A program made the translations under genes and the position numbers. A DNA stretch of 64,000 nt from a virus. Below, piece by piece: positions 147 to 61,683 of this stretch (positions within the stretch are counted from its first letter, which is position 1; each line of letters begins with the position of its first letter). The stretch is taken from positions 21,036 to 85,035 of IMG/VR virus record IMGVR_UViG_3300010399_000035. One strand, given 5' to 3'. Below the pieces are notes generated by a model. That model did not search any database. It was not told the DNA's origin and was given only the letters and a program-made list of their open reading frames with translations.

Positions 147-1145
147 ATGCCAGCACCAGCTATTAACATCATTGGTGGGGATCAAGCAATTGTACGCTTC
201 TTGCCTGAATCCACCGACCTAAGTCTATACCCATTCTCTACCATGCCTTCGGTGCCGGGTGGAACGCCACAGCTGTTCGGCGTGACTCGCGTACCGCAAA
301 AAGACCGTCAGCGGAGCAACAAGAAACTGTTCTCGGCGGGATCTCCGTTCGGCATTGCCAACGTTCGCGGCGTGCGAGCGTACATGGTGAATGTAGAAAT
401 CAACATTGCCAACTTGGCAGTGTTGGCTTATTGCGTTCGCAACGGCTACAACAATAGCGTACAGACTACAGGCTATAAGGGTCTACCCGACCTATGCTTG
501 TTCATCGACTATGTAGACACCTATGGCGAGGGCAACGGGTACTCCTGGATCATTCGCTATGCCAAGTGCGACACCGGCTCCATCTCCATCCAGATGAACG
601 GGCCGGAAATTACGGCACAGCTTCGCTTCATTGGTATTGCAGAGTATCCGAATGGTTCGCCGCTCTCCATGACGATGTCCCAGCTGGACACCGCCATCCG
701 CACCTTCGGCGAAGCACTGACTTACCACCATTTGGTTTCGTTGACGGTGGGTAGCGATCTCCGCCCAATCCTGAGCGGCATCAACTACCAGTTCAACAAC
801 AACGTGCACGGTTCGCAAGCAGCCCGCCCCTCTTCTGGAGCGGACGGTCGCTTATGGAACACGCACTACTCGCTGAAGCCTGGGAACCTGAACGTCTCCG
901 CAGACTTATCCTTGGATAGTGATATTCCGGCAGCCCTAGCTACCAGTGCTTTCACGTCAGACGCATGGGGCGACATCATTGCAACCATCAACAATGCGGG
1001 GACTGGCGGATCCAAGGTACAGGTAATTACCCTCACAGATGCACTGCTAGGCACCGACTCTGCTGGAGGCGGAGATTCTGGCCAGGACATCCCCTTCTCC
1101 GCCAACGTGACCGGCGACGCATTGGTGATTGCGAATACGTTCTAA
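147..1145 (+). CDS. Major tail (tube) protein, putative
   Basis: 332 aa, AGGAG RBS, beta-rich composition, position before chaperone and tape measure genes. Confidence 0.6.
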   Translation: MPAPAINIIGGDQAIVRFLPESTDLSLYPFSTMPSVPGGTPQLFGVTRVPQKDRQRSNKKLFSAGSPFGIANVRGVRAYMVNVEINIANLAVLAYCVRNGYNNSVQTTGYKGLPDLCLFIDYVDTYGEGNGYSWIIRYAKCDTGSISIQMNGPEITAQLRFIGIAEYPNGSPLSMTMSQLDTAIRTFGEALTYHHLVSLTVGSDLRPILSGINYQFNNNVHGSQAARPSSGADGRLWNTHYSLKPGNLNVSADLSLDSDIPAALATSAFTSDAWGDIIATINNAGTGGSKVQVITLTDALLGTDSAGGGDSGQDIPFSANVTGDALVIANTF

Positions 1146-1151
1146 CCGAAA

Positions 1152-1248
1152 GCCCATCTTCTGGGAGAGATGCTCCGCGTTCTTTGCTACCTACAACAGC
1201 TTGCTGTATACTGGTAGTGTGTGCGGAGATCTCTCCCAGAAGAGGGCC
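1152..1248. repeat. Inverted pair of dispersed motif A (reverse copy 1152-1178, forward copy 1223-1248)
   Basis: GCCCATCTTCTGGGAGAGATGCTCCGC and GCGGAGATCTCTCCCAGAAGAGGGCC read directly. Confidence 0.9.
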
Positions 1249-1287
1249 ATAAATTCGACTAAATCCGAGAGTAGTTGAAAAGGAATC

Positions 1288-1863
1288 ATGCCCGACGAAC
1301 CGACCAACCTATCCGAGAAGATGGCCGCAACTGCTGCTAGTGATCCAGAAGCTGCATCCTACCTAGAGCGCAAGGCCCGCGAAGCTGAACAGCAGCAAAC
1401 GAAGTCCGTCGTGGGTGATACCAAGCGGCTGAAGTTCACTTCGGTGAATGGCAAGCCAATGAAGTACATCACGCGCCCTTCGCAACGTACCGAGGATACC
1501 TACGAACTTGTGGTGCATCTGGAGCCTGGGTTTGCGGTGGCCATTGATATCCTGCCGGAGATTACCTTAAGGGAGCGTACGCGTGAGCTCCAGCGTATCC
1601 AATCCGATGGGCGGGCGTTGGCGAATGTGGATATGAAGGAGTTAGATAAAGCCTATGATAGGGCTGACGAGTTAGCGGACGAAGAGAAGGCCCTCTACGT
1701 AGATGTCATCCGTAGCCAATGTAAAGGCTGGACTAATCCGGAACCGTTCAACGTAGATGAGTTGCTGGCCGACTTGAACGCTATCGGCCGCACCACGCTT
1801 GGCGACGAGATCATTGGATCCTCTTCGACAGGGCGTCCGGGCACTGTGCCGCTAAAAAACTAG
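1288..1863 (+). CDS. Tail assembly chaperone (gpG-like)
   Basis: Lies between tube and tape measure genes; ends in slippery A-AAA-AAC before TAG. Confidence 0.75.
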   Translation: MPDEPTNLSEKMAATAASDPEAASYLERKAREAEQQQTKSVVGDTKRLKFTSVNGKPMKYITRPSQRTEDTYELVVHLEPGFAVAIDILPEITLRERTRELQRIQSDGRALANVDMKELDKAYDRADELADEEKALYVDVIRSQCKGWTNPEPFNVDELLADLNAIGRTTLGDEIIGSSSTGRPGTVPLKN

Positions 1864-2114
1864 TCTACCGGGTCGTTGAACAGGGTGAACCGGCACTCCA
1901 GAAACTTGGTCGTGGAGAGACTCAAGCAGACTTAGACCTACTGAAAGACTTCCTGTGGTCCTTGGGCTCACCGGAAGTCTTTTCGTTAGAGGAGATGACC
2001 CAGACGAATAGGTTGCGATTGCGCGACTTGGCCGTATCCTGGCATTTGAACCAAGCCCATATCCTATTCGATATAAGGAAGTTGCTGTTGAAGTTGCTGC
2101 AGAAGCCGGTGTAA
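1288..2114 (+). CDS. Tail assembly chaperone, -1 frameshifted long form (gpGT-like)
   Basis: Heptamer AAAAAAC at 1854-1860; the -1 frame is open (LVYRVVEQGE...LLQKPV) to TAA at 2112-2114, filling the gap before the tape measure gene. Confidence 0.75.
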
Positions 2115-2127
2115 CCTATAACTGCTA

Positions 2128-9238: not shown

Positions 9239-9288
9239 GCGGAGCACTCTCTCCAGAAGATGGCCGCTCTTCTGGCAGAGATCTCCGC
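9239..9288. repeat. Fused dyad of motif A (forward + reverse half-sites)
   Basis: GCGGAGCACTCTCTCCAGAAGATGGCCGCTCTTCTGGCAGAGATCTCCGC, intergenic. Confidence 0.9.
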
Positions 9289-11720: not shown

Positions 11721-12056
11721 ATGCCAAACTACGTAGTAAGCGGAGCAGGGGATGCGGGATATAACGGTACCTACATTGATATAGGAGTAGCCTACCCAGG
11801 TTTCACTCCATATGTTGTCTACCAGTTGGACAGCACTCACTTCCTGTTCAATTCCAGCGGATTCTGGTATCTGTCTTCCTCGGTGGATAGCGCTGGTATC
11901 AGCGGAAACACCCATTACTACCAGAGCGATGGCGGCAACCCATCAGTAGTAATACTTGGACCCTACGTGAATGCAGGCGGTATGACAAATCCTGCACCCA
12001 CCGTTGCCGTCGCGGGGGCTGCAACCCACACAGGTGACATGTTCCTTGGCGGATAG
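11721..12056 (+). CDS. Small virion-associated protein, putative
   Basis: AAGGA RBS before ATG 11721; last gene of the tail operon. Confidence 0.55.
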   Translation: MPNYVVSGAGDAGYNGTYIDIGVAYPGFTPYVVYQLDSTHFLFNSSGFWYLSSSVDSAGISGNTHYYQSDGGNPSVVILGPYVNAGGMTNPAPTVAVAGAATHTGDMFLGG

Positions 12057-12057
12057 A

Positions 12058-12106
12058 GGAGATCTCTCCCAGAAGATGGGGCCATTCTTTGGAGAGGGTC
12101 CTCCGC
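12058..12106. repeat. Fused dyad of motif A
   Basis: GGAGATCTCTCCCAGAAGATGGGGCCATTCTTTGGAGAGGGTCCTCCGC right after the stop codon. Confidence 0.85.
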
Positions 12107-12236
12107 TGTTGGTGCTCTGTTCGGCCGTAGCCCGCTTGGGCCGACGACGGGCCGCTCGACCAAAACCGGCGAGCCCACTTGGGTGGTTGGGCGTGAACTC
12201 GGCGGTTTTGGAAGCGGAAGCGACAGCCATTAGAGT

Positions 12237-13791: not shown

Positions 13792-15948
13792 TCATTCAGC
13801 CCTCCGTACCTTCACTCTCCTAATTCCAGGCTTCGTAACAGGCGTGGCCTTCTTCAATCCAGCCGCTTCCCACAGATTCACTATATGGTCCGTAGCCCCA
13901 TATAAGTAACGCGGAGCGCCCCGCCCAAATGGATTCTCCGTGCGGGTCTTGGTGACTGCTCCCAGAAGATAGAGGTCTTCCAGTTGGTCGCGCAATGTTG
14001 AGAGGGGAATATCCAACTTCTCGCAGAGCGGTTCGATGAAGAAGTCTCCGTCATTACAGAATGCGGCCACCGCTTCCAGATTAAACCCCACGCAAGTATC
14101 CAAGGCTACGCGACTTACGATAGAGTAGTTGTCTTCGTCCAGCTTAGGTGTGTGGGACAGCAGCGAGAGCCCGTAGGTTAGCTTAGTCAATTGCTTGCCA
14201 ATGCGGGTACCCATTTCATGCTGGGGACGGTACTGCAACTTCTCTTGCCCGCCCGACCAGGCTCGGTTCACATTAGCGCGAAGGATGCCGACCAGCGAAG
14301 CCAGCGCTACAATCTTCGTGATGAGCCACTCCGGCATGGCGGGTAGCGTATACGGATCTATCTTTACCTCCACGAACCTACGTACGATGTCGTGAAGGTC
14401 CTCGCGCATGCCAATCTCTTGGCCTACGTTGCCTATGGCGGTGCGGATGGCGGCGTCCGCGTTCGGGTTGTGGCCTACTCCCTTGACCAAGTGGAACATC
14501 AAGAACCGCTCGCCAAGGGCTGCGGTTCGCTCACCGAACACGGCATGCGTCACGCCGCTGATCATGTTGAATTGGACTTCGTAGTTGCGCACCAATCCGT
14601 TGCCGTAGTGCTTGGTGACGGAACCGTCGTAGGCTCCGCGTAGGGTGCCGTAGATTTCGTCGCGTTGGGTGGCAGGCAGGTTCAGTATCTCGGTGAAGTC
14701 CTTCAACACGAATGTCTTCTTGTTCAGCCTGGGGAGCAGGGACGGATCCCCACCGCCCCGCGTAGCGAAGCCGCTAACTAGGCTATGCGCCGTCAAGGTA
14801 CTGGCGAAGTAGCAACTAGGGCAGCCGCTGAGAGGCATCAGGAGTTCCGTCTTCGCCGTCCCTGGAGGAGATACGATATGCATCCAGAGCGGATCCCCAC
14901 CGATCTGGTTCGAGAGCACCACGGCGAAGATTAGCTTAAGGCCCGTCACCATATCGTCCGACATCTTCAGGTGCTGCCGGAACACAGATAGTACTTGGTC
15001 GAAGGTTGGGCGTTCGGTGGAATCTGGGGGCGGAAGCGATTCTATATGGGCAGCTTGCTCCGCTTGTTCGTTGATTTGGGCTTCGGAGACATAGATGGTA
15101 ACTAGGGATTGGAGTTCCTGGTAGGTACCTCCGCTAACCACAAAGTCGCGGATGTCGAACTTATTAGGAAGAGAGGATGGCCACTTGACATGAAGGAAAT
15201 CTTTGGCATGTCCGGCGAGTTTGCCGGCCAAACGATCGGTGCCCTTGACTCCGCCCGCGTCATGGTCGAAGCAGCATATGACGGTCCGCCCCGACACATA
15301 CTCCGACCAACGATCCTTCCATACTCCTGCTCCGGGCACACCAATTACAACGCCTTCAGCGGAGCTCTGCTCCAGAAGATGGCGTAGGGCTATCGCATCC
15401 CATTCACCCTCGCAAACGTAGACAGGTTCGCAAGCCTTGGCTAGGTCCAGCAACGCAGCCAAGTTCCATATAGAGAGTTCCAGACCCCAGATGGACTCTA
15501 GCTTGAAGTCTTCGCCGCACCGACGAAAGTTAACGATTTTTCCGTGGCCATTGTAGATCGGGATGTACCAATGGACGCCATCGTGAACAATGCCAGTTGA
15601 TTGTAGGACTTGCGGTGGTAGGTGGCGGCTAGCGGCTAGTTCGGCTAGCCATTCGGGCACCAGACTAGAACTTAGTTCAGTCCCATTTAGTTGCGCGGTG
15701 GGAGTGGGCTGCGCGTACATGCGGTACCACTCCGCTAAGAACGTATAGGTATTACCGTTCAACCCACAGGAGCCAGCCTTGCAATCCCACTGACCCGTTG
15801 CGGCGTTGATGTACAGCTTCTTGCGTCCTCCACAAAAGAGGCAGTCGCCGTAGTATTCGTCTCCCGCATGATTATCCGCGTGATATTCGAAGCCTAATGC
15901 GATGAACGGTCTAAGTTTGGGAGGAACTTCGGATGAGCTCCTCGCCAT
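13792..15948 (-). CDS. Primase-helicase fusion (Zn finger + Toprim + MCM-like AAA+ ATPase + C-terminal HTH)
   Basis: CLFC...CKAGSC; CEGEWD and FDHD Toprim motifs; Walker A PPGTAKT; start moved to 15948 because of a GGAGG RBS. Confidence 0.8.
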   Translation of the reverse strand: MARSSSEVPPKLRPFIALGFEYHADNHAGDEYYGDCLFCGGRKKLYINAATGQWDCKAGSCGLNGNTYTFLAEWYRMYAQPTPTAQLNGTELSSSLVPEWLAELAASRHLPPQVLQSTGIVHDGVHWYIPIYNGHGKIVNFRRCGEDFKLESIWGLELSIWNLAALLDLAKACEPVYVCEGEWDAIALRHLLEQSSAEGVVIGVPGAGVWKDRWSEYVSGRTVICCFDHDAGGVKGTDRLAGKLAGHAKDFLHVKWPSSLPNKFDIRDFVVSGGTYQELQSLVTIYVSEAQINEQAEQAAHIESLPPPDSTERPTFDQVLSVFRQHLKMSDDMVTGLKLIFAVVLSNQIGGDPLWMHIVSPPGTAKTELLMPLSGCPSCYFASTLTAHSLVSGFATRGGGDPSLLPRLNKKTFVLKDFTEILNLPATQRDEIYGTLRGAYDGSVTKHYGNGLVRNYEVQFNMISGVTHAVFGERTAALGERFLMFHLVKGVGHNPNADAAIRTAIGNVGQEIGMREDLHDIVRRFVEVKIDPYTLPAMPEWLITKIVALASLVGILRANVNRAWSGGQEKLQYRPQHEMGTRIGKQLTKLTYGLSLLSHTPKLDEDNYSIVSRVALDTCVGFNLEAVAAFCNDGDFFIEPLCEKLDIPLSTLRDQLEDLYLLGAVTKTRTENPFGRGAPRYLYGATDHIVNLWEAAGLKKATPVTKPGIRRVKVRRAE

Positions 15949-19182: not shown

Positions 19183-19235
19183 CGCGGAGCATCTCTCCCA
19201 GAGAATGGGCCATCCTCTGGCAGAGGCGCTCCGCG
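19183..19235. repeat. Fused dyad of motif A
   Basis: CGCGGAGCATCTCTCCCAGAGAATGGGCCATCCTCTGGCAGAGGCGCTCCGCG, just upstream of polA. Confidence 0.9.
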
Positions 19236-21899: not shown

Positions 21900-21955
21900 G
21901 ATTCTCGGTTCCTTTTTAACGGCTTGGCTATCTTCTGGGAGAGATGCTCCGCAGT

Positions 21956-22929: not shown

Positions 22930-23648
22930 TCGGCCTCCACTTCAACCATACGCGGAGTATCCTCTCCAGAGGAGGGCCCAGTTTCTGGTAGGGTTTCCTG
23001 CTGGGCAGCCCAGGCTTCGCAAACGGACCAGTTGAAGTGTTGGGCCTTCACCGGCAAATTAGCGAGCTCACCACTGATGCCATATACGCTGGTGAGACGG
23101 CTACGATCGTAGATAGAGTTGGGGATGCAGCCGCTGAGTTCGGAGTCCAGGAACAGTGCCAACCTGGAGTACCCAGACAGGAGCCCGTCGCAGCCATGCG
23201 TCAACATAACGTTCAAGTGCTCAGCCTTCTTCGTTGGGTGGAAGCCGACGACAAGCTTGCCTAGTCCTCTGGCCGTACCCATCTCCCAAACTGTACCTGT
23301 GTCGGGGAGTTCGAGCTCCCTTATAGGCACGGTGATATCCACCTTCAAATCGGTGTATTCGCTGTGCTTCGGTTCCAACTTGCAAGCGCAAATGCGCTCG
23401 TTCGGCGGTAACGCATACGCAAGCACCGCCAAGAGCAAATCACACTCCTGGATGGACTGCTCGTTCCAGTTGAAGAGGGGGAGCCAAGCGGCAGGATTCT
23501 TGCGCTGGTCCTTCGGGGGTAGGAAGGGCTCGCTGCCGAGTCGAGGGGAGAGGAATTCGTGTCCGGCAGAGGTGATTATGTCTTCAATTGTGGCAATGAT
23601 GCCGCGTTGGGGCTCGTTGAAGAGCGGTGCGGCTATGTAGATTTTCAT
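22923..23648 (-). CDS. Nucleoside 2'-deoxyribosyltransferase / nucleotide N-glycosidase family
   Basis: IYIAAPLF, CDLLLA, DTGTVWEMG, LNVML motifs. Confidence 0.85.
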   Translation of the reverse strand: MKIYIAAPLFNEPQRGIIATIEDIITSAGHEFLSPRLGSEPFLPPKDQRKNPAAWLPLFNWNEQSIQECDLLLAVLAYALPPNERICACKLEPKHSEYTDLKVDITVPIRELELPDTGTVWEMGTARGLGKLVVGFHPTKKAEHLNVMLTHGCDGLLSGYSRLALFLDSELSGCIPNSIYDRSRLTSVYGISGELANLPVKAQHFNWSVCEAWAAQQETLPETGPSSGEDTPRMVEVEAEC

Positions 23649-24470: not shown

Positions 24471-24627
24471 TCCATGTACCCTTTACCTTTTCGTAGGTAT
24501 ACCTTTGCGTAGATTTGTTGACATTGTGGTGCCGGTCGTACAGCTTGAGTGCAGGTAGTTTTTAGGCCCCTCTTCTGGAGAGAGTCTCCGCAGTCCATAG
24601 GTAGTTGTGTGCGCATAGCGCAACCAA

Positions 24628-30886: not shown

Positions 30887-30947
30887 TGTGGTTTTGGGCG
30901 CTCCTCTGGGAGAGATGTCTCCGCGAATAGTAAATAGCTAATGATAG

Positions 30948-33190: not shown

Positions 33191-33493
33191 TTATTGATTT
33201 TTGGGCCCATCTTCTGGGAGAGATACTCCGCTATCCGTTTGGGCGTGGGTATCGATGAAGTCTGCTATCTGATGTAGGAACCGGGCGCGTTCGCAGCGGA
33301 AGTGGCTGCCTGATGGGGTGGGTTCATCATCATAGATGGTGGTGAAGAGTAGCGCGTTCAGGACGCTTTCGGCGTCTAGTTCGACGTACTCATACGGTGG
33401 GTCTTGGTTGGGTCGTGGGATGGATAGTTTGGTTCGGTGCATAGTAGGTGCGGAGCTCCTCCCAGAAGATGGGGCCTTTGGTTTAGTCGTCAT
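33191..33493 (-). CDS. Hypothetical protein carrying motif A copies at both ends
   Basis: Motif A at 33204-33231 and 33450-33476; start codon uncertain. Confidence 0.45.
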   Translation of the reverse strand: MTTKPKAPSSGRSSAPTMHRTKLSIPRPNQDPPYEYVELDAESVLNALLFTTIYDDEPTPSGSHFRCERARFLHQIADFIDTHAQTDSGVSLPEDGPKNQ

Positions 33494-35620: not shown

Positions 35621-35786
35621 GCGTTCAGGATATCCCAACCGAATGGATCGTACAAGTCGTAGCCATCCCAGCCTTCCGTGTCGGGCGGAGAGTTCTCTCC
35701 AGAAGACGCGCCCGAATGCTTGGCCCAAACTGCGAGTAGGATGCCGGCGAAGAGCAGAGAGGCAAGCGCGATTAGGAGTGATCGGT

Positions 35787-36325: not shown

Positions 36326-36409
36326 TGTAGTTTGGGTGGTATTCTGGGAGAGATGCTCCGCTCTCGGTTTGGGTGGCGGCGAGAGCGGAGCTAGCTGTGG
36401 GTTGGTTAG

Positions 36410-37351: not shown

Positions 37352-37680
37352 GATGGTAGGTTTCGTACCCAGAAATCTTTGATGGCGGCTTCCTGGTTTT
37401 CGTAGGTATAGGGAAGTGTGGTTAGTGACTGATTTGGGGCGGTTGGCAAGTATTCGCGTAGTAGATCGACGTAATAGTCGCATAGTCGCTCCACTGATTT
37501 CAGGTATTTAGCTTGCCGTTGGCAGCGGCGATAGGCGTGATGTGGGTTGCGGAGCCTTGGGTTGCTGATGAGTTTGGGCGTTCTTCTGGGAGAGATGCTC
37601 CGCGTTCGATATATAGTGTTTAATTGCCGCGAATAGGTTGGGTGGCCGTATATGGTGGAAGGGTAGGTTGGGTGCTTCAT
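37294..37680 (-). CDS. Hypothetical protein
   Basis: ATGA overlap upstream; contains a motif A copy. Confidence 0.4.
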   Translation of the reverse strand: MKHPTYPSTIYGHPTYSRQLNTIYRTRSISPRRTPKLISNPRLRNPHHAYRRCQRQAKYLKSVERLCDYYVDLLREYLPTAPNQSLTTLPYTYENQEAAIKDFWVRNLPSNNSENTPINPTQTPQDRA

Positions 37681-38848: not shown

Positions 38849-38959
38849 GGTATTTTTAGGGTCGTCCTCTGGGAGAGATCCTCCGCGTTCGAGCCTTTCG
38901 CGTTAGTAGTTAGTGTTGATTTGGCGAGTTTGCATAGGAGCATTCGGTGGGTGGGCTCA

Positions 38960-40889: not shown

Positions 40890-40983
40890 CAGAAATTATG
40901 CCTCAATCTGAAGCGGCTGCGGGGCCTGTGAGAAAATAAATTGGAGGTTATTTTCGTACCACAATTCGACAGCGTCAAGTTTT

Positions 40984-41755
40984 GGCCCATCTTCTGGGCA
41001 GGATTTCCGCTGTGGTGGGCCGCGTGGCAGGCGAAAACAGGGTACGGACATGGACTCGTCCGTAACTTAAGACTGACTGGGCTTAAAGCTGGGTTGGCTC
41101 ATTTTGAGTGCTCCGGTTTTAATCGGCCTCGCCAAAATACGACCAAACCTTATTAAAACGGTGTTTCAAAGGGGCGAGACGAAGGACTGAAAATCGCCCC
41201 TCTCGCAGGGCTGTGTCACCGTTTTAAAGATTTCTGTTCGGAGTTCGAGCAAATCTGCGAGTATCCTGGATTAAGGTCTAGAAACGGTCACCCCAGAAGT
41301 TGGGACAGCGCACAGAAAATGTGCGTTTTTGGGCTCATCTGCGGATTTTGTAGATGGCTCAAATTCCACCGTTTTGGTTTTTGTATTTGGCAATTATTTA
41401 CTTAAATTGACCATATATTAAAATATGATATTACTTAAAAATATCATGACAAAAAGCAAAAAGCGCATGACGAACGATACCCACCCATCCAGCAGTCGCA
41501 AGCGAACTCCCTGTCGCCGTTACCATAAGACGGACCAGGCGAAAACAGGGCTGGCCCGGTTCGGGGGCACCCTCGCCGCCCAACGCATCCGATGGCTGTC
41601 CCAACTTTCAAGGTGACCGTTTCTAGAGTTCGACCTTTTCAGCGAGAAAAACGGAATTCCGCACAAATCCGCCAAAACCGCCCACTTCGCGCCGCGCCCA
41701 ACCCGCCACCACTCGCTAACTATCAACGCGGAGGATCTCTCCCAGAAGATAGGCC
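40984..41755. other. Symmetric non-coding region: putative replication origin or genome-end junction
   Basis: 33-bp inverted repeats at 41277-41309 and 41595-41627 around an AT-rich core (~41390-41460); 15-bp direct repeat at 41028 and 41536; flanked by divergent motif A copies. Confidence 0.55.
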
Positions 41756-41791
41756 AAAAGAAAACCCCAGCAGTGTGTAGCTGCTGGGGTT
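41756..41791 (-). terminator. Intrinsic terminator of the leftward early genes
   Basis: AACCCCAGCAG / CTGCTGGGGTT stem with a U-rich tail on the minus strand. Confidence 0.75.
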
Positions 41792-42640: not shown

Positions 42641-43119
42641 CTTTCTGGCCGCTACCCGCCTAGGGCCTGTAGAAGGTGTCGCTGTTGAAAACTTCGTCTG
42701 TAGTGGGTCTATATTGCGCGTTCGCGGGGCGGGCGGAGCCTTGGGGCTGAAGGCGGGCAAACGGCCCTAGAAATGGCGCTGAGCGCGAAGAGCGGGGTAT
42801 TTGGGGGTGTGGGGCGGGCGAATGGATGGTCCAAGCCACGCGGCGACCAAACATCGCACGAGGTAGGTGGACACCACCACGGCGATTGGGCCACACCAAG
42901 ATGATTCGCTAATTTCCAAGCGTGGTCAGCGGAGGTATCTCTCCCAGCAGATGGGCCTAAAGACGAATGCCCTACCAAACCACTTCGGGGTTGCCAAGTT
43001 CCGGTGCGCTGTATGGGAACTTCGCGGAAGGCGTCTTAAGCTGGCTGGCCACTTCGGGGTTGGTGAATGGGGTAACGAAATACCCCGCCAGTTTGCGCTG
43101 GCGGGGTATGGGGAGCGAA

Positions 43120-45280: not shown

Positions 45281-45320
45281 GGTATGCGGAGCATCCTCTC
45301 CAGAAGACGGGCCTAAAAAA

Positions 45321-45718: not shown

Positions 45719-45803
45719 ACGAACTCCTTTTAACGTCTTTAGCGTTGCCTGGGCTTGGAACCAGGACTGCCGCATTACGGCCCGGAGGGGCCGTCCTCTG
45801 CGA

Positions 45804-46120: not shown

Positions 46121-46262
46121 CTGGCCACTCCCGCCCGCCTGTGGAGCAGGTACTCATCGATGTTCGGTAGGAGCTCCGCACCCAGCAGCCCGACAAGGTC
46201 TAGGCGCAATCGCTGTTCGCTATCTGCTGGTCGCGGAGAAACCTCTCCCAGAAGATGGGCGT

Positions 46263-49796: not shown

Positions 49797-50831
49797 CTAG
49801 CTCGCGGCCTCCGCGAAGAACTGATCCAACGCGCGACCACTCAGCGAACAATCCACCAGCAACTCCGGAGCAATGTGGCCTTCGTAGCGCATGGGGTGGC
49901 GGCGGGATTTCTTGGTAGGTTTGGGCGCGGGAGCGCGTTGAATGGCAGGCTTCGCGGCACGCCCACGCGGAGCATCCGCTCCAGAAGATGGGCCATCAGT
50001 ATTCAACTTCGCCACGATCTGACGGCGGATTTCTACACGATCGGGCGCATGCTCGTACACAGGGTAGGAATTCAATACGTTCTGAACTTCCCGCTGAATC
50101 TCGGCTTCGGTTGGAATCAAGGGCAACGGATCGCTGAGATCGATCGCCGGGATCTCCACAGCCATCGCCCCACCATGTTGCGGGTGGGGCAAGCCGTAGT
50201 GCTCGGCGCAGATCGGGCCGTAGCCAACTTCCACGGAACCTTCCTCTTCGAGCGTCCGGCCGCAGAAGCAACAGGCACCCAACAGACGGCCATACTCGGC
50301 GGCAACTTGCACCGGATTGACGGCGAAGCGAAGCACAACTTCGCGAATAGCGGGCGACATAGCCTTACCTTCCACCAGACGGCCATCCGGGTCAATGCGT
50401 CCGAACCAGGTACGGTCTTCGTATGAACCGGACGAGACAACCGAGAGGGATTGGGGGTGCTTGCTAGCCGAAGTGTTCGGCAGAATGCGGAAGTCTACCA
50501 CTTCGCCAGTGGGGGCGGTGGCTTGCAGCCGAACCTTGGGCCGCTTGAGGGCCTTGGCAGCGGTGGCGAACAGTTCGTAGATCTTGGCGACTTCGGCTAT
50601 CGATTCCGACGACCGCTGCGCGCCCGTCGCCAACGAATCCATCGCCAGCTTGTGCACCCACCACCATTGCTCGCTGCTCAGCGAACCCTTGGCGGTGAAA
50701 TCCGCTACCAACTTCGCGGCGAAGGAGTCGGGCTTGCCTTCGGCCAACCCAACCAATTCCTCCATTGCTTCCCGGTACGTAAACGGCGATTCCAACGTTC
50801 CCCGCTTGCCTGCTACACGATTCCGAATCAT
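49797..50831 (-). CDS. DUF6011-like Zn-finger protein
   Basis: YGRLLGACCFCGRTL...SVEVGYGPICA. Confidence 0.7.
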   Translation of the reverse strand: MIRNRVAGKRGTLESPFTYREAMEELVGLAEGKPDSFAAKLVADFTAKGSLSSEQWWWVHKLAMDSLATGAQRSSESIAEVAKIYELFATAAKALKRPKVRLQATAPTGEVVDFRILPNTSASKHPQSLSVVSSGSYEDRTWFGRIDPDGRLVEGKAMSPAIREVVLRFAVNPVQVAAEYGRLLGACCFCGRTLEEEGSVEVGYGPICAEHYGLPHPQHGGAMAVEIPAIDLSDPLPLIPTEAEIQREVQNVLNSYPVYEHAPDRVEIRRQIVAKLNTDGPSSGADAPRGRAAKPAIQRAPAPKPTKKSRRHPMRYEGHIAPELLVDCSLSGRALDQFFAEAAS

Positions 50832-50968: not shown

Positions 50969-51292
50969 CTACAACCCCGCAGCTTCCTCAATGAACGCAT
51001 TGCGTTCGTCCAGGGCTGGGGCGTAGGGGTTGCCCGCCTCGGCGAGTTCGTCCACCTTCGCCGCGAAGAACTGGTGCAGCAAGCGGCACATCTCGACGTC
51101 GCCGATTTCGTCGTACAGCTTTTGGTAGGTAGCGAAGGTTTTCGCTTCCATGATTACTTGGGATACAAGTTCGTTGTAGCGTGGATTTACCACGTTCAGC
51201 TGCAGTTTGATAATCCATGGTACGTCTTCAGGGTAATGTGCTTTGATGGTATCGTAGCAGCGTTGCTCGTCGGGAGTTTGCGGACCTATCAT
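50969..51292 (-). CDS. Hypothetical protein
   Basis: GGAGG RBS. Confidence 0.6.
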   Translation of the reverse strand: MIGPQTPDEQRCYDTIKAHYPEDVPWIIKLQLNVVNPRYNELVSQVIMEAKTFATYQKLYDEIGDVEMCRLLHQFFAAKVDELAEAGNPYAPALDERNAFIEEAAGL

Positions 51293-51579
51293 GAATCCTC
51301 CTCGGTTTCCGGCAGTTCCAGCCCAGAGAAGGGCGAACGGAAACCTACAGACAGAATGCGCTTCTTGACTTCGGGGTTGGAGTTGGGGTCGTCTACGGGG
51401 CCGCTAGAAATCCGTTCCACCAGCAAGTTGCGGTGGTACATTTCGTCGGCGGTTTTCTTGCGGGGTGCGGGGTAGGCCACTTTCAGCGGCTGGTGGAGCG
51501 GGGTCCAGGAATAGGGCGCGAAGTCCGTTTTGCGACGACGAACTTGCGATGGGGGGGTGGGGATGGCTTGGCGCGGCAT
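51289..51579 (-). CDS. Hypothetical protein
   Basis: AAGGAG RBS; downstream of a promoter. Confidence 0.55.
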   Translation of the reverse strand: MPRQAIPTPPSQVRRRKTDFAPYSWTPLHQPLKVAYPAPRKKTADEMYHRNLLVERISSGPVDDPNSNPEVKKRILSVGFRSPFSGLELPETEEDS

Positions 51580-51674: not shown

Positions 51675-51889
51675 GAGGGCAGGAGCCGCAGCCCCTACCC
51701 CCCAAAGCACCACACCAACTAAACATTGCGCCCCAACACGGCTCGCTATTCGCGAAGGACTCTGTCCAGAGGATGGGCCAGCCATTTAAAGGCCTCTAGC
51801 AGCCGATTTAAAGCGACTTTATCATGGTAGGCCGCAAGGGTCCGCCCCGTCGAAAATCGTTTTCGTGGGCGGGTGTGGCTTGGTTGGTT

Positions 51890-52861
51890 TTAACTCGTAT
51901 CGCCCAACAACCACTCCTTGACGTCTTCGTAGTTGTCGGAAATGGCGAGCAGGGTTTCCTTTGCCTCGTCCTCTTCGTTCATGTCGTCGGCCCACTGGTT
52001 CTCGTCGCGGAGGGAGAGGACTTCAGCGGTGATTAGGTCTGCCAGGTTGCTGGGAGCCATCGCATCCAACTCCCACGATTCCTCGCCGAACTCGTCTATG
52101 TAGGCACCTGCGCGAGGATCCGTCACTTTGGCCGGATCCGGCGGCAAGCTATATAACTCAACCTGATCCATATTGAGCGCGATGCGCCGAACGGAGATAT
52201 CTCTCCCAGAAAAGAGGGCCAATCGATCATCGATGTCCCGCGTCATGTCTTTGCCGGATGGGTCGTGGTCGCCAAGGTGGATGACGACTGGTTTACGGTC
52301 GTTAGTGTCCGCCGCCTTCCGCAGCCTTTGTCCAGCTCCCCAAAGTTCCGAAGACGAAGTGTACCCGCGACAGGAGAAGTGGGGTACGTCCAGTGGTTGG
52401 CAGGCTTGCTCCACGATGCCGATTAAGGCATCCTTCTCGACCCATACCTCTACGTAGTAAGGTTGGAGTAGCCATTTATCAAGCCGGAACTGATCCGCTA
52501 CAGCACCTAGGATATCGCTGGGAGAATCCCAGTGTGGCAAGTTGCGCAAGTTCCTGGTGCGATCCGTAATGTGCGTCCAGTCTAGCAAACCGCCGTAGCG
52601 GGCCTCATTCAAGATACCACCAAGCTTCTTGTAGTTCTTCATGGTGTTCTTGGTGTCGGGTGATAGACCGTTGCGACGGTTATATACCGGATCTATCCAA
52701 GAGTCTGGGAAATAGTCGTGCGCGATGAACTGGTAGTATAGCTGGCGGAGGGTAAGGTCGTAGCCCAACGCATGCCATTCGCGAATGATGGCATTCGCCT
52801 GCTCGATGATGGCCAGCTTCTCTGGACGGAATTTGATGTAGCGGTAGGCAATGCGGGGCAT
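51890..52861 (-). CDS. Topo VI-A / DUF2399-like Toprim protein
   Basis: TLRQLYYQ, EVWVEKDAL, RGY, HLGDHDPSG, WELDA. Confidence 0.75.
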   Translation of the reverse strand: MPRIAYRYIKFRPEKLAIIEQANAIIREWHALGYDLTLRQLYYQFIAHDYFPDSWIDPVYNRRNGLSPDTKNTMKNYKKLGGILNEARYGGLLDWTHITDRTRNLRNLPHWDSPSDILGAVADQFRLDKWLLQPYYVEVWVEKDALIGIVEQACQPLDVPHFSCRGYTSSSELWGAGQRLRKAADTNDRKPVVIHLGDHDPSGKDMTRDIDDRLALFSGRDISVRRIALNMDQVELYSLPPDPAKVTDPRAGAYIDEFGEESWELDAMAPSNLADLITAEVLSLRDENQWADDMNEEDEAKETLLAISDNYEDVKEWLLGDTS

Positions 52862-53776: not shown

Positions 53777-53821
53777 TGGATCTCTCCCAGAAGATGGCGC
53801 TACATTCTGCCACCACTAAGT

Positions 53822-56701: not shown

Positions 56702-57123
56702 TGGCCCAATACTATAACTGGGATAGAGCCGACTATAACAGCGATCCCTTCCGCATTATGTTCGACAACTACTTCCGTCGAACCGGGACGCGCCACCCCG
56801 CCGACCCCAAGTATAAGGAATGGCAGGAAGCACAAAGCACCCCTCCCGGCAACCCTTCGGCTGGACGCGGAGCATCTCCTCCAGAAGAGGGGCCAAAATC
56901 CACAGCTCCGTATGTGTCGCTCGAGGTTCGTAAGGCGGCAGATTTTCTGGCTGCGAACTCGACTATACGCTCCGATTATATAACTACGTCCCCAGAGCGA
57001 ATGAAAGCCGCTTACCGCGAAGCGACTCAGAAGCTACGCCCCGATCTTGGCCGCAACCACGAAGCCTCGGTTCAGTTGAACGCCGCCTACGCCACGTTGA
57101 AGCGATTTCATGGCGTTCGGTGA
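56701..57123 (+). CDS. J-domain-like protein with HPD changed to RPD
   Basis: MKAAYREATQKLRPDLG...QLNAAYATLK. Confidence 0.65.
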   Translation: MAQYYNWDRADYNSDPFRIMFDNYFRRTGTRHPADPKYKEWQEAQSTPPGNPSAGRGASPPEEGPKSTAPYVSLEVRKAADFLAANSTIRSDYITTSPERMKAAYREATQKLRPDLGRNHEASVQLNAAYATLKRFHGVR

Positions 57124-58780: not shown

Positions 58781-58789
58781 AGGTTTATT

Positions 58790-58963: not shown

Positions 58964-59037
58964 GAACGGACAGCGAAGGACTCTGCCCAGAAGATGGGCC
59001 CTAAACTTTATAGATTAGCGCAAGGGAGGTGATTTGA

Positions 59038-59421
59038 ATGAACTACATGGTAATCGTGATTCAAGGCGTCCTCGCCTGGATTGCCGATCACAAGAACTTG
59101 CAAGATCGTCTGCTGCAGGTGAAGCCAGTGCTAGTCAAGCTGCATGACATTATCGAGGTGATCTTCCCTGATGTTGCGCAGCGGAGTGGTACTGCACATC
59201 TAACTGCTGCTCGCCAGGAGTTGGATAGTGGATCGATTGTTGCCGAAACCGACGGTTCTAGTAATTCGGACCAGAGTACGGCTCCCGATAGTGAAGTTGC
59301 CGCAGTTTCTGGCAAGGACTCCACTGGAACCGGCGCACAGGATACTCCGGCCGATGGCAGTGCAGCCCCGCAGAATGCGGGCGATGTCCAGCGCGTGCCA
59401 GATGTGCCAGGGCAGCAGTAG
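59038..59421 (+). CDS. Hypothetical protein
   Basis: Strong GGGAGGTG RBS. Confidence 0.65.
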   Translation: MNYMVIVIQGVLAWIADHKNLQDRLLQVKPVLVKLHDIIEVIFPDVAQRSGTAHLTAARQELDSGSIVAETDGSSNSDQSTAPDSEVAAVSGKDSTGTGAQDTPADGSAAPQNAGDVQRVPDVPGQQ

Positions 59422-59624: not shown

Positions 59625-59649
59625 ACTGTCCGAGAGGAGTCGTTCCCCA

Positions 59650-60288
59650 ATGAACGAGCTAGCGGCGGCTAGGTTAGACTTACATATGGTAGCTACATGG
59701 CCTATGGAAGCAATGCCGATCCTGTCCAGCGCCATAGTCTCTGCAGACGAACATAGCTACGTAGATAGAACCCCAGTGCCTTGGTGGCGTACCTTTGTGA
59801 TGAACCGACCACAACCAACTCGCGTGTTACTAGTAGAAGATCAAGCGGACCAGCGGCGGTTGCTACAAATGTGGCTAGGAGGTCCTGAGGAGCCTAAGGC
59901 TGCTTGCGGTAATGATGGCTGGGAGATCTCCGAAGCAGCTACGTTAGAAGATGCCTGTGCAGCGGTCCGCAGCCACGAGTACGATTGTATCCTGCTGGAC
60001 TTGGGCCTAGGTTATTACACGGCGCAGCATGTATTCGACTCGGTGAAAGCGTGCGCAGGAAAGCAGCCTATCGTCGTGATGAGCAACAATGTAGACGAGG
60101 ACGTCTACGCATACGTAATGAGTCATGGGGCAGCGGAGTTCATCCCCAAGATGAGTGTTCACGAAGATGGATTGAAGCATTCCATCTGCAATGCGATGCG
60201 CTGGTCGGAGTTGGAGCAAGAGCAAGCACGGCTGGAAGCTAAGGCCGAAGAGCATGAAGCTACTGCAGCCAACTATAAAGTCATTTAG
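59650..60288 (+). CDS. Response-regulator receiver (REC) domain protein
   Basis: VLLVEDQ, ILLDLGL, IVVMS, GAAEFIPK; GAGGAG RBS. Confidence 0.85.
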   Translation: MNELAAARLDLHMVATWPMEAMPILSSAIVSADEHSYVDRTPVPWWRTFVMNRPQPTRVLLVEDQADQRRLLQMWLGGPEEPKAACGNDGWEISEAATLEDACAAVRSHEYDCILLDLGLGYYTAQHVFDSVKACAGKQPIVVMSNNVDEDVYAYVMSHGAAEFIPKMSVHEDGLKHSICNAMRWSELEQEQARLEAKAEEHEATAANYKVI

Positions 60289-60352
60289 TTCCGACTCAAA
60301 GCTGGTATTAGTTGTATCTAGCAGACTGGTGATACCTTGAGCAGGATGAAAT

Positions 60353-60871
60353 GTGAGGATGGTAACTTGGTGGCAGTGGGTGGTATTCGTCGCCGGATCA
60401 GGCGGGATCGTCTGGTCTACGTACGATCGGATAGCCCAGCGACAGAAATTTAATCTGGAGCAGAAGGCTGCCGCCTTAGCTAAGGATGAGAAGTTAGCGG
60501 ACCGTTCCTATCAAGAACATCACGATCTCGTTGAAGCCTTGCAGTCTGAGCGTACTAGTAAGAATGAAGAGATCGCCCGAAAAGACGCTGCCATTGAAAC
60601 CCGTAACGCGGAGATTGTACAGTGGAAGGAACTAAGTGGGAAGTCCAAGGAAATCATCGCCCACAAGAATCTAGAAATCTTCCTTTATCGGAGGGAGCGG
60701 CGCGAGCTTCTGGAAGCGACCAAGGAACTGGAAGAAGATTTGAAGAAAGTGGAAGCAGCCGCTAAGGAAGCGAAATGGGACGGTAATGAGGTTCGTGATT
60801 GCACCCAAGTTGTGTCTATGATGGCCGCCAAGCTGTCGAATGATATAGAGATCCCATTCGAGAATTTGTAG
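60353..60871 (+). CDS. N-terminal TM plus coiled-coil protein
   Basis: WWQWVVFVAGSGGIVW followed by charged heptads. Confidence 0.6.
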   Translation: MRMVTWWQWVVFVAGSGGIVWSTYDRIAQRQKFNLEQKAAALAKDEKLADRSYQEHHDLVEALQSERTSKNEEIARKDAAIETRNAEIVQWKELSGKSKEIIAHKNLEIFLYRRERRELLEATKELEEDLKKVEAAAKEAKWDGNEVRDCTQVVSMMAAKLSNDIEIPFENL

Positions 60872-60893
60872 AGCGGAGATCTCTCCCAGAAAA

Positions 60894-61247
60894 ATGGGCA
60901 ATCCAAAAACGTTGGTGGCCGTTTGGCTGGTCTCCTTCATTGTATCAGGGCTGATACTGGAAGGAGACCTTTTGGCACACCATGCGCTGCTCATTAGTTG
61001 GTACATTGCAACTTGGTTCGTGGCCTACCCAGCCTTCGTGTTCAGTGTTGGAGTGTTGATGGGGCATTGGGCAGGGCAGGGGTTTAAGGTAAACCGCTGG
61101 CTGGATTTGGTAGTATGGGTACTCATAGCCATAGTAGTAGCAGCGATAGCTCTGCCTACCCTAGCTTTGTTCGTTGCGGGCGTGGCCGCAGGACATAGCT
61201 TCTGGCAGTTCAAGGATAACAAAATCGCTGTATCCGAGAAAGGATAA
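60894..61247 (+). CDS. Multi-pass membrane protein
   Basis: 3-4 hydrophobic segments; repeated G..MGHW / G..AGHSF. Confidence 0.6.
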   Translation: MGNPKTLVAVWLVSFIVSGLILEGDLLAHHALLISWYIATWFVAYPAFVFSVGVLMGHWAGQGFKVNRWLDLVVWVLIAIVVAAIALPTLALFVAGVAAGHSFWQFKDNKIAVSEKG

Positions 61248-61248
61248 C

Positions 61249-61683
61249 ATGTCAAAGAAGATAGTTAGGCTTACCGAGGACGTAGAGGACTTTGAAGGCA
61301 ACTCTGCCAATATTACCGTAGGCAAGGTAATTATTCGCCAGCTACAGAACATGCCCCTAGCCGAAAATCCACAAGTCGGTGCCACACAAGGTGACCTGGA
61401 TAAGGCACTCCGCTGTAGAGCTCTCGTTCGTAGACTACAAAAGGCCATGCAGCAAACTCCTCCGGACGACCGTTTAGAAAAGGTCTCCGAAACAGACTAT
61501 ACAGTCATTGACGAAGCTATCAAACGGAACCCGATTGGATTCCCTAGAGCACTCATGACGCAGGTCATAGAAGCCTACAGGGGTATCTCTTACGATGAGT
61601 CCGACGACCGCGACGACCGCGACGAGTCGAGCGGAGAATCTCTCCCAGAAGATGGGCCTCCAAAACTAGAAGCCGTAGGCTAA
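61249..61683 (+). CDS. Hypothetical protein, possibly a fibre chaperone
   Basis: AAGGA RBS; precedes the fibre-like gene. Confidence 0.55.
   Translation: MSKKIVRLTEDVEDFEGNSANITVGKVIIRQLQNMPLAENPQVGATQGDLDKALRCRALVRRLQKAMQQTPPDDRLEKVSETDYTVIDEAIKRNPIGFPRALMTQVIEAYRGISYDESDDRDDRDESSGESLPEDGPPKLEAVG

Follow-up and report, generated by a model that had tools for sequence, protein, structure and literature searches.

A repeated, polar DNA motif oriented about a non-coding hub in an uncultivated soil phage

The C1 operators of phage P1 provide a comparison system for dispersed sites that may act as polar roadblocks to RNA polymerase. The stoperators of Cluster A mycobacteriophages are another such system: their copy number, asymmetry and intergenic location match those of the motif described here (PMC9283540), although this motif is 2.5 times longer. 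It is carried by an uncultivated soil phage of ~94 kb, in a record of 85,035 bp (IMGVR_UViG_3300010399_000035), of which a window of 64,000 nucleotides was analysed; coordinates refer to this window unless stated otherwise. The motif is a genuine repeat that is selected at the DNA level, is phage-specific and is polar about a non-coding hub, whose anatomy is described below.

Structure, number and conservation of the motif

The asymmetric consensus A-n-GCGGAG-N1-4-(T)CTCTCC-CAGAAGATGGGCC-AAnA extends over ~33 bp; it includes an A-rich tail and, ahead of CCAGA, an extra conserved (T)CTCTCC block. The spacer between GGAG and CTCC varies from 1 to 4 nt, and the 15 nt that follow the motif are A-rich. 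The folds of single copies are no more stable than those of shuffled sequence, and no clear covariation was seen in the GGAG/CTCC stem. Searching the window for the 14-mer core CCAGAAGATGGGCC with at most 2 mismatches returned 27 matches; shuffled sequence gave 0.70 on average and never more than 3. The bipartite pattern identified 34 copies across the whole record, and an nhmmer profile with a cut-off of 11.5 bits found 34 in the window. A position weight matrix (PWM) combining head, spacer and core, with a threshold of 13.6 bits set by the top score in the reversed sequence and 5 shuffles, gave 55 copies in the record (40 of them in the window), 29 of which score at least 30 bits. The phage carries some 30-55 copies, at a density of ~0.35 per kb and with gaps reaching 6-8 kb.

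Although 89% of the genome is coding, 18 of the 29 strong copies are intergenic (p=7e-11). Copies occupy orthologous places in strains that are ~81% identical, including those within or antisense to genes; they evolve more slowly than synonymous sites, and no presence/absence insertions were seen between strains. At third codon positions the mismatch between two strains is 0.12 within motifs and 0.36 outside. The motif is thus under purifying selection at the DNA level. Strain G001 shows the same layout, but its copies are orthologous and do not constitute an independent test of it. Scanning 185,579 species genomes yielded 15 isolated low-scoring matches in as many scattered genomes, none of them with another copy nearby: the motif is confined to one phage species group. 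Identity with a host REP was rejected, as the phage has no RAYT gene and the scan revealed no multi-copy host.

These data bear out most of the preliminary description, which had proposed a genome-wide, phage-encoded signal selected at the DNA level. The length of ~28 bp that it gave was too short, and the copy that it had listed in the primase gene (RHLLEQSSA; 15359..15385, plus strand, antisense to primase) is present but weak, with 23 bits and a head that is missing in G001.

Polarity about the hub

The orientation of the motif switches at 41.4 kb. To the right (41.4-64 kb) 14 copies are forward and 2 reverse (10:0 for strong copies), while to the left (21.9-41.4 kb) 4 are forward and 9 reverse (1:8 for strong copies). 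The Fisher p-values of 0.0027 for all copies and 0.00012 for strong ones are somewhat optimistic, the breakpoint having been picked after inspection of the data; the strong counts, 10/10 forward on the right and 8/9 reverse over 20 kb on the left, are of solitary copies. The genes flanking the flip are real minus-strand genes, as judged from codon-usage scores and from the excess of third-position substitutions relative to a related strain. When the right side was limited to minus-strand genes (41.4-56.2 kb; 9:1 forward:reverse for all copies, 7:0 for strong ones) and compared to the same left side, the difference persisted (p=0.0097 and 0.0014, respectively, and optimistic in the same way). 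Motif orientation tracks the 41.4-kb axis and not the direction of local genes. The flip and its independence of local gene direction, both asserted in the preliminary description, are upheld, except that polarity is looser on the left than on the right. In record coordinates, the forward domain starts at 62.7 kb and continues across the contig ends as far as about 40 kb, and reverse copies elsewhere within it almost all belong to inverted pairs. The two arms about the hub are very unequal (about 29 and about 65 kb). Third-position GC skew follows gene direction, with no separate arm or replication signal.

The flip falls inside a conserved non-coding hub of 0.9 kb (40.9-41.8 kb). The hub core (41135..41690), whose one ORF is broken in G001, contains 5 of the genome's 11 ACCGTTT iterons where 0.1 are expected, nested inverted repeats of 29 and 33 nt (41277-41309 / 41595-41627), and an 80-bp AT-rich block (41370-41460) with back-to-back sigma-70-like matches; such sites number 11 in the hub region, for 10.8 expected. 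This anatomy is origin-like or switch-like. On each side, the first copy lies 300-400 bp from the AT-rich centre and is directed outward. The left one (40984..41010, minus strand, 36 bits) is kept in three strains with a variable middle. It is located 85 nt upstream of an early-promoter-like box, TTGAGGCATAAT, which is associated with the inverted repeat AAAATAA-N8-TTATTTT (40895..40954, minus strand) and followed 5 nt later by a GTG start. The right one (41728..41755, plus strand, 47 bits) is preceded by a conserved 300-nt leader without a conserved ORF and is nearly identical, together with the 60 nt upstream, in three strains. Its A-tail overlaps the T-run of an intrinsic terminator (41763..41791, minus strand) of the inward-running early operon, the stem of which is maintained in a third strain through compensatory changes.

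Host-type early promoter boxes (AGGCATAAT with an upstream inverted repeat) are found only between 40.9 and 56.3 kb, and two of them are directly followed by GTG starts. The operon at 40.9 kb and the right-arm early operons have the same early-type box, but motif copies are sense in the former and antisense in the latter; orientation therefore follows hub position and not promoter class. No RNA polymerase or sigma factor, including sigma-70 region 2 and the two-barrel catalytic motif, was recognisable in the phage, and the search for repeated intergenic words turned up no further one for middle and late genes. Since the early boxes are confined as well, middle and late transcription needs a phage-specific signal for the host enzyme. 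Shine-Dalgarno sequences are largely missing from middle and late genes.

Copies along the arms and in the inverted-pair zone

Strong solitary copies that lie outside the 14-kb early block are all sense to their genes; seven strong, conserved copies are antisense to all surrounding genes. On the left arm, sense copies on the minus strand are located at 21925..21952 (38 bits, with an ATG and its AAGGA box ~25 nt downstream), 24565..24591 (30 bits, intergenic), 30896..30924 (43 bits, conserved in G001), 33204..33231 (48 bits, the best match), 36334..36362 (36 bits), 37576..37603 (43 bits) and 38859..38887 (40 bits). Three of them, all kept in the sister strain, end 8-10 nt ahead of an ATG without Shine-Dalgarno: 10 nt for 30896..30924, 8 nt for 36334..36362 and 10 nt for 38859..38887. 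Plus-strand copies comprise 33450..33475 (31 bits), the sole strong one that opposes the local polarity, a weaker opposing copy at the 5' end of the SNF2 helicase gene (35685..35712, 21 bits), and 22952..22979 (30 bits; degenerate inverted partner), which is located at the 3' end of the NDT-like gene and reads GPSSGEDTPR.

The following copies to the right of the hub are on the plus strand. The one at 42929..42957 (44 bits) is intergenic and antisense to early genes, that at 45286..45313 (37 bits) occupies the 40-nt spacer between two minus-strand genes, and that at 46233..46261 (39 bits) overlaps the start of a small minus-strand ORF and reads NAHLLGEVSPR. Two lie within genes: 49967..49994 (38 bits, conserved in G001) reads GPSSGADAPR in a 344-aa minus-strand gene, and 52191..52219 (33 bits) reads ALFSGRDISV in the Toprim / 'topoisomerase' phrog_6247 gene. 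Between them is an intergenic variant with a GCGAAG head (51752..51779, 17 bits). The copy at 53781..53800 (34 bits) has no GCGGAG head, and its complement GGGAGAG precedes a minus-strand gene, 7 nt from the ATG. Further right, copies are sense: 56867..56894 (44 bits) reads GRGASPPEEGP in a 140-aa plus-strand gene, a second GCGAAG variant (58973..59000, 23 bits) lies 37 nt before the ATG at 59038, 60873..60899 (37 bits) is intergenic, and 61631..61658 (44 bits) falls within a gene's last 17 codons (SSGESLPEDGP), 35 nt before the ATG of a tail-fibre-like gene.

Inverted pairs make up the transition between forward and reverse domains, a zone at 10-44 kb of the record with its centre ~15 kb away from the hub antipode. 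Pairs of two strong copies are found at 1.2, 9.2 and 19.2 kb. The first is a head-to-head pair with copies 42 nt apart (1151..1178, minus strand, 39 bits; 1223..1249, plus strand, 44 bits, 39 nt upstream of the ATG at 1288). In the second (9239..9288; plus 22 bits, minus 40 bits) the copies overlap at GGCC and a long hairpin is predicted (-29.5 kcal/mol, z -4.0). The third (19184..19234; 43 and 37 bits) also overlaps at GGCC, just upstream of the DNA polymerase start, with a hairpin of -35.6 kcal/mol (z -4.6). Another pair (12056..12108; plus 38 bits, degenerate minus partner 21 bits) is placed precisely at the junction of the plus-strand and minus-strand gene arms.

Possible readings of the signal

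The data suggest that the motif steers a polymerase, whether of RNA or DNA, departing from the hub. We describe it as a one-way cis-acting signal of ~33 bp that would be read by a phage-specific factor; no trans-acting factor was identified. Our tentative preference is for a sense-strand signal for transcription leaving the hub, and we infer RNA polymerase, not the replisome, as its reader and 'go', not 'stop', as its meaning. Such a restart or anti-termination signal would be read on the non-template DNA strand or in nascent RNA, and host RNA polymerase would have to meet it in the right orientation to transcribe middle genes on the left arm and late genes on the right arm. The two arms of copies, pointing away from the hub, would meet via the inverted-pair zone, including the pair at 12.06 kb. 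Rightward transcription through the inward-facing early operons would yield antisense RNA that contributes to their silencing, and would then continue into the late genes. Early operon terminators work on the minus strand only and would therefore not stop it. The sense orientation of strong solitary copies outside the early block, the intergenic enrichment, the three copies just ahead of ATGs without Shine-Dalgarno, the need for a phage-specific signal and the outward first copies all agree with this reading, and the variable spacer is what a small hairpin would tolerate in its loop if the nucleic acid were single-stranded. Against it, single copies lack any folding or covariation signal, the double-strong inverted pairs are awkward for a purely directional 'go', the sigma-70-like matches in the AT-rich block can be due to chance, and neither NusG/RfaH-like nor HTH_3 proteins were found in the phage. 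Moreover, a replication signal explains equally well that orientation follows hub position.

A replication-arm signal is indeed possible, and nearly as likely. The hub would be an origin and the motif would lie on one defined template strand per arm, where the replisome or an associated protein would read it. It could serve as a polar barrier to forks or a pass signal, like Tus-Ter/RTP, as a signal for priming or helicase loading, like plasmid ssi, or as a strand-specific nicking site; inverted pairs would mark the zone where forks may come from either side. The iterons, AT-rich block and nested inverted repeats at the flip argue for it, as do the orientation by hub position among operons that share a promoter type, the domain transition in the pair zone with one pair at gene-arm convergence, the conservation of copies within and antisense to genes, and a spacer tolerance that would fit recognition of single-stranded DNA. 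However, known replication-polar signals are neither so long nor so dense, no Tus homologue was found in the phage, GC skew shows no arm effect, and the unequal arms and off-centre pair zone fit poorly. Gaps of 6-8 kb are too long for obligatory Okazaki priming sites, and the phage primase is of the DnaG/Toprim type, which reads trinucleotides. Intergenic enrichment and the proximity of copies to start codons would have to result secondarily from coding constraint.

The preliminary description had proposed a polar system for replication, recombination, packaging or genome organisation. Its observation is confirmed and its interpretation partly supported: polarity, selection and the origin-like or switch-like axis hold, but these roles are conjectural, the same layout being expected from RNA polymerase travelling outward from the hub. 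The distance of the terminase and portal genes from both polarity switch points speaks against a packaging-polar signal.

Autonomous middle and late promoters, for which a phage factor would redirect host RNA polymerase much as sigma is appropriated at T4 middle promoters, are unlikely. GCGGAG would lie near -27, GAAGAT would be a weak -10 and GGGCC a discriminator, with the start in the A-run. Size, asymmetry and density resemble phage-specific promoter sets, most copies are sense and upstream of genes, the following 15 nt are A-rich and there is no other promoter candidate for these genes. With an ATG 8-10 nt downstream, three copies would yield near-leaderless mRNAs, and the two early boxes directly followed by GTG suggest that this phage does use leaderless starts. 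But, besides the lack of a recognisable phage polymerase or sigma-70 region 2, conservation is unbroken across the would-be promoter spacer, several good copies have lost the T of the putative -10, and the plus-strand gene arm starts at 56.2 kb without a copy. Overlapping face-to-face pairs in which both copies are strong would fire into each other, and early-block copies would fire antisense in the right-arm operons while being sense in the left-arm one.

More doubtful still are polar roadblock operators, at which a monomeric two-domain phage protein would stop RNA polymerase from one side, inverted pairs blocking both directions. The bipartite architecture with its flexible spacer and the occurrence of single sites alongside overlapping inverted pairs match the stoperator and P1 systems, as do copy number, asymmetry and location, and the hub resembles a control region. 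The greater length of the site and its orientation in the early block, which does not track transcription, argue against this, and either blocking orientation would leave more than half of the conserved sites non-blocking and without an obvious role. No integrase, ParB or HTH_3 repressor was found in the phage, so that nothing points to lysogeny.

It is very unlikely that the motif acts at the RNA level only, whether as a site for RNA processing, as a translational operator or as a leader that recruits ribosomes to genes without Shine-Dalgarno. Some sense copies do lie near the starts of such genes, inverted pairs would give double-stranded RNA of more than 20 bp, and a twister ribozyme in the phage shows that RNA processing does occur there; but the seven strong antisense copies would require an antisense transcript with nothing to translate, and single copies have no fold signal. 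A functionless selfish or host-derived repeat, REP/BIME-like or MITE-like, would explain the dispersal that breaks de Bruijn assemblies and the inverted pairing shared with BIMEs, but is largely refuted by the absence of a RAYT gene and of hairpins in single copies, the near-empty genome scan, the slow evolution at orthologous places without insertions, and a strict polarity not expected of a neutral repeat.

We return to the tentatively preferred signal for transcription leaving the hub. With at least 30 copies, such a signal would far exceed known anti-termination systems in number, whereas the first outward copies flanking the hub resemble the arrangement of nutL and nutR in phage lambda.

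Extent and conservation of the motif

The 14-mer core of the motif occurs 27 times in the window when up to two mismatches are allowed, against 0.7 occurrences expected. Aligned copies read A-n-GCGGAG, a spacer of 1-4 nt, (T)CTCTCC-CAGAAGATGGGCC and an A-rich tail, and share about 33 informative positions. A weight matrix of head, spacer and core, which the preliminary description had proposed to build together with a strand map, was run on the whole record and returned 55 copies, 40 of them in the window. The matrix threshold of 13.6 bits was exceeded neither by the reversed sequence nor by five shuffles, and 29 copies reach at least 30 bits (strong copies).

The IMG/VR virus record is 85,035 bp long, with a completeness estimated at about 80-90%, and the window takes up its bases 21,036-85,035. 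A 94,285-bp contig encodes a capsid protein 97% identical to that of the studied phage, so the full genome probably measures about 94 kb. The sister strain G001 (88.4 kb) is ~81% identical across 61.5 kb and circularly permuted with respect to the studied record; G002 is the same phage as G001. Most motif copies have orthologous positions in G001. Mismatch between the studied phage and G001 is 0.117 within motifs, whereas third codon positions reach 0.356 and alignable intergenic DNA 0.191, which bears out the selection at the DNA level proposed from the first inspection. Third codon positions that lie within motifs show a mismatch of 0.124 (11/89, p = 7 × 10−7).

Motif copies prefer intergenic DNA, and some abut start codons: 18 of the 29 strong copies are mostly intergenic, 89% of the genome being coding (p = 7 × 10−11). 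In-gene copies are located in Pro/acidic linkers or at protein termini, and those in sense orientation almost always use the frame giving SG.S.PEDGP. The DNA word thus appears to have been fitted where the protein tolerates it. Outside the window (record 4021 and 10077, L025, and other head genes), each in-gene copy of the portal gene and of the 888-aa head gene precedes the peptide D.HGRWTS by about 30 codons. A common C5-methylase target, GGCC, closes the motif; the minus strand of window 12486-13238 encodes a 250-aa protein whose match to C-5 cytosine DNA methylases is limited to their C-terminal part (PF00145, E = 7 × 10−7).

Folding of single copies gave z-scores of -0.4 to +1.8 relative to shuffles, i.e. 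no stable hairpin, leaving a hairpin function of single copies unsupported. Inverted pairs of opposed copies do fold, into hairpins of -30 to -36 kcal/mol (z = -4.0 and -4.6).

Exact-pattern scans of viral and metagenome contigs found the motif in no species group other than that of the studied phage, where it turned up in G001, G002 and a few short contigs. Among 185,579 species genomes, a set from which the true host is perhaps absent, we found only 15 isolated matches, in unrelated phyla and all of at most 15 bits; none had a second copy within 8 kb. A six-frame search of the studied phage and G001 for a RAYT (PF01797) gave no match, while control genomes matched. The near-absence from bacterial genomes and the lack of a RAYT led us to reject an origin as host REP, in agreement with the preliminary description, which had set the motif apart from a REP with a cognate RAYT. 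The motif is functional DNA under purifying selection, neither a host repeat nor a mobile element. A look-up of sequencing runs matched this DNA to one run, the probable source metagenome, and to no RNA run. Contigs of that metagenome covering window 30-50 kb show no joints or inversions, and they break at motif copies.

Cultured phages are distant, with at most 26% identity in the DNA polymerase and 32% in the capsid protein. Megablast against 50,697 phage records found no DNA relative, and a protein search with the DNA polymerase recovered G001 as sole relative. A capsid-profile search retrieved phages of 35-40 kb with 42% identical capsids, in which neither the motif nor a comparable repeat was found. 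The nearest named relative of the capsid protein, whose gene lies outside the window (L025 12071-13459), is MBV9863968.1 (55% identity), from a contig of 95.7 kb that was assigned to an Abditibacteriaceae MAG, which hints at a host within Abditibacteriota.

Polarity of the motif and the gene arms

Genes are arranged in two arms (record coordinate = window coordinate + 21,035). The plus-strand arm starts at record 77.3 kb, crosses the contig ends and stops at 33.1 kb; it carries the terminase, portal, major capsid and tail-fibre-like genes. The minus-strand arm, from record 77.2 kb down to 33.3 kb, encodes a DUF6745 protein, a Toprim protein, an SNF2 helicase, a PD-(D/E)XK nuclease, an AAA_24 protein, a UDG-family protein, an NDT-like protein, the DNA polymerase and a DnaG-type primase. 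Genes were called with a simple caller of our own, which missed at least two genes. Substitutions relative to G001 are enriched at third codon positions, including in the minus-strand genes either side of window 41.4 kb, which shows that the gene directions are real.

The central claim of the preliminary description was that motif polarity flips at window 41.4 kb, independently of gene direction, and our counts uphold it. Right of this point 10 of 10 strong copies are forward (14 of 16 overall), and in the 20 kb to its left 8 of 9 are reverse (9 of 13 overall). The difference in strand bias is significant for strong copies (Fisher p = 1 × 10−4) and for all copies (p = 0.003), with a breakpoint picked after seeing the data. 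When the right side was limited to the 14 kb with minus-strand genes (the early block), the ratio was still 7:0 for strong copies (p = 0.0014) and 9:1 for all (p = 0.0097). The copies of window 41.4-56.2 kb are thus antisense to validated minus-strand genes. Overall, the motif has the sense orientation where genes are middle or late and is antisense to those of the early block. All polarity statistics describe one phage lineage with a breakpoint chosen post hoc. The layout is the same in G001, which is not an independent test since the ancestry is common copy by copy.

In the whole record, the forward domain extends from 62.7 kb to about 40 kb by way of the late genes. Every strong reverse copy within it is a partner in an inverted pair, and such pairs lie at record 10.0, 22.2, 30.3, 33.1 and 40.2 kb, with a weaker pair at 44.0 kb. 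These pairs occupy the transition between the forward and reverse domains, and one of them sits precisely where the plus-strand and minus-strand gene arms converge. An apparent second switch point at record 41-42 kb does not coincide with a non-coding gap, as this region holds conserved minus-strand genes missed by the gene caller.

The control region and its expression signals

The flip falls in the hub, a control region at window 40.9-41.8 kb that is the largest non-coding stretch of the window. Five of the 11 ACCGTTT words of the genome fall there, against 0.1 expected. Inverted repeats of 29 nt and 33 nt surround an 80-bp AT-rich block carrying back-to-back sigma-70-like matches, which are consensus matches only. 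Long blocks of the hub are conserved across three strains, and its sole ORF is broken in G001. The nearest motif copy on either side lies 300-400 bp from the hub centre and points outward; directly right of the right-hand copy stands the terminator of the inward-running early operon, the stem of which is kept by compensatory changes. This anatomy fits either a replication origin or a transcriptional switch. What marks the hub as a candidate origin is the iterons and the AT-rich block only. Third-position GC skew tracks gene direction only and gives no separate replication-arm signal, and an Rfam search found no known RNA family in the hub.

The AT-rich block is followed by a conserved stretch of about 170 nt (window 41446-41620, plus strand), which starts with ATG in a frame broken in G001 and contains possible nested stems CCCTGT...ACAGGG; it may be a small RNA or an origin element. 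In the genes beside the hub at window 34.0-40.4 kb, the coding strand is markedly G-poor at all codon positions (third-position GC skew of -0.35 to -0.74), resulting in a large local GC skew of the plus strand. One of the genes in this interval, Lar-like / DUF1737, contains a perfect (TGGTAT) × 7.7 tandem repeat at window 39166-39211.

Boxes resembling promoters, (T/A)T(G/C)AGGCATAAT, are found at window 56150, 46062, 44794 and 40895 on the minus strand, with a variant at 56256 on the plus strand; about 35 nt upstream of each stands an inverted repeat, AAAATAA-N-TTATTTT. The family is confined to window 40.9-56.3 kb, and these boxes look like host-type early promoters. A GTG start codon follows two of them after 5 nt, which suggests leaderless mRNAs. 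Of the 28 genes of the early block (window 41.8-56.1 kb), 19 have strong Shine-Dalgarno boxes; of the 41 in the left arm, i.e. the minus-strand genes left of the hub (12.3-40.9 kb), 13 do (p = 0.004), as do 10 of 27 late genes. The sharp contrast between gene blocks suggests changed translation initiation or a RegB-like shut-off.

With the main motif masked, no other repeated word between middle and late genes stands out. TATA boxes resembling a -10 element stand upstream of only some motif copies, and orthologous copies in the two strains have different ones; we therefore did not retain them. Six of the 29 strong copies (window 41728, 42929, 46233, 53781 and 19184; record 19665), mostly in the early block, have a TCGCTA box 15-30 nt upstream, against a background of 2%. 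The word AAGCCGTT recurs 15-25 nt before several start codons, with 5 intergenic copies for 1 expected; the starts concerned are those of window 49797-50831, 51289-51579 and 22923-23648, and the word also falls within the tail of motif copy 21925. On the minus strand at window 45749-45802, Rfam identifies a Type-P5 twister self-cleaving ribozyme (RF02684, 53 bits for a gathering threshold of 37.6). Given its location between two early genes, the early polycistronic RNA is probably self-processed.

Readings of the motif and comparison with known systems

The early-type promoter box at which the left arm opens is shared with the early operons of the right arm, yet the relation between copies and genes is opposite in the two. 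Orientation is thus set by position relative to the hub and not by promoter class. Together with the inverted pairs at the arm junction, this favours something that travels outward from the hub. Our tentative preference goes to a signal for transcription moving outward. If the traveller is an RNA polymerase, late genes would be reached by read-through of the early block from behind, and the sense orientation in middle and late genes and the preference for intergenic DNA and start codons would follow directly. Like lambda nutL/nutR and ops, the motif copies would be sense-strand signals flanking a control region, so that their DNA orientation flips there; boxA and boxB of lambda nut also span about 30-35 nt and combine a small hairpin with a linear block. 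These systems differ in having two or three copies for 30-55 of the motif, with no sequence similarity, and the NusG/RfaH-like factor was not found in the studied phage (NusG N-terminal domain PF02357, no match). Searches of the hub-flanking and early proteins in Pfam, PHROGs, PDB sequences and the ESM Atlas returned nothing useful. Almost every one of these proteins lacks a family assignment, so the protein reading the motif is probably new too.

Nearly as likely, though also short of even odds, is a reading in which the replisome recognises the motif as an arm-specific signal, about 33 bp long and present more than 30 times, its strand being set by the direction of forks leaving a phage origin. 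In such a scheme, opposed pairs would mark where forks meet, and a dedicated reader would make the motif a phage counterpart of Ter, KOPS or ssi. Ter (Tus, RTP), KOPS, Chi and RSF1010 ssiA/ssiB are likewise strand-specific, set by the direction of replication, and flip at origin or terminus. The arm-uniform, flipping orientation of the motif would fit polar fork barriers around a candidate origin. Opposed Ter pairs at the termini of R6K and Bacillus subtilis recall the inverted pairs. Replisome reading requires the usual co-orientation of genes and forks to account for the sense orientation in middle and late genes, and reduces the intergenic and start-codon preference to a by-product of coding constraint. 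These known signals are 8-23 bp long or single 40-nt hairpins, and their density is far lower than that of the motif. A search for Tus (PF05472) gave no match in the studied phage or G001, and we know of no such signal in a phage in this form.

Autonomous promoters are improbable. T7-type promoters are similarly long, highly conserved and asymmetric, of similar density, and placed between genes and inside upstream genes. They nevertheless have a fixed internal spacing and always point with the genes, whereas the motif is antisense at window 41.4-56.2 kb and has strong reverse partners in its inverted pairs. They also require a phage RNA polymerase, and none was found: PF00940 had no match, a weak result as control genomes gave none either, the D-x-D-G-D motif is in no real ORF of the phage, and neither Sigma70_r2 nor the two-barrel catalytic motif was found. 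The hub-relative orientation despite the same promoter box, and the clustering of inverted pairs where the arms meet, speak against autonomous promoters.

The same two observations count against polar roadblocks of the stoperator type, which we consider less probable again. Stoperators of Cluster A mycobacteriophages (L5 gp71 type) are asymmetric sites whose orientation matters and which, as does the motif, fit a monomer with two DNA-binding domains (PMC9283540). Like the motif, they form dozens of asymmetric, orientation-dependent sites genome-wide, mostly in short intergenic spaces. Unlike the motif, conserved over about 33 bp, they measure 13 bp and always follow transcription, which 7-9 copies of the early block oppose. 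Cluster A phages are moreover temperate with a known repressor, whereas no lysogeny gene or repressor was found in the studied phage; integrase, ParB_N and HTH_3 all gave no match in a record about 80-90% complete whose early proteins are mostly family-less. P1, likewise with a genome of ~94 kb, has scattered asymmetric C1 operators, single or in overlapping inverted 'bivalent' pairs (incomplete palindromes). The C1 operators, about 17 sites of 17 bp in a plasmid prophage, overlap individual promoters and have no genome-wide polarity, unlike the motif.

A purely RNA-level element is very unlikely. A selfish repeat is hardly credible: REP/BIME elements, whose units are imperfect palindromes that each fold by themselves, are also dispersed, partly in inverted pairs and with a GGAG-like foot, but the motif has no RAYT, forms no stable hairpin as a single copy, is absent, save for isolated weak matches, from the bacterial genomes scanned, occurs inside genes and is under purifying selection.

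Whichever polymerase reads the motif, the arrangement of its copies implies a direction code that spans the genome and has a single control region at its centre. It may mean late transcription through early genes from behind, or a replication-arm signal so far undescribed in phages. The motif offers a practical handle on a phage lineage without cultured relatives, as it marks the arms, the hub and the limits of modules in genomes of this type; it could also be used as bait to find the binding factor. The dispersed one-way sites described so far in phages are promoters or stoperators, which always follow the genes; the present motif is instead long, strongly selected and aligned with an axis, indifferent to gene direction over 14 kb.
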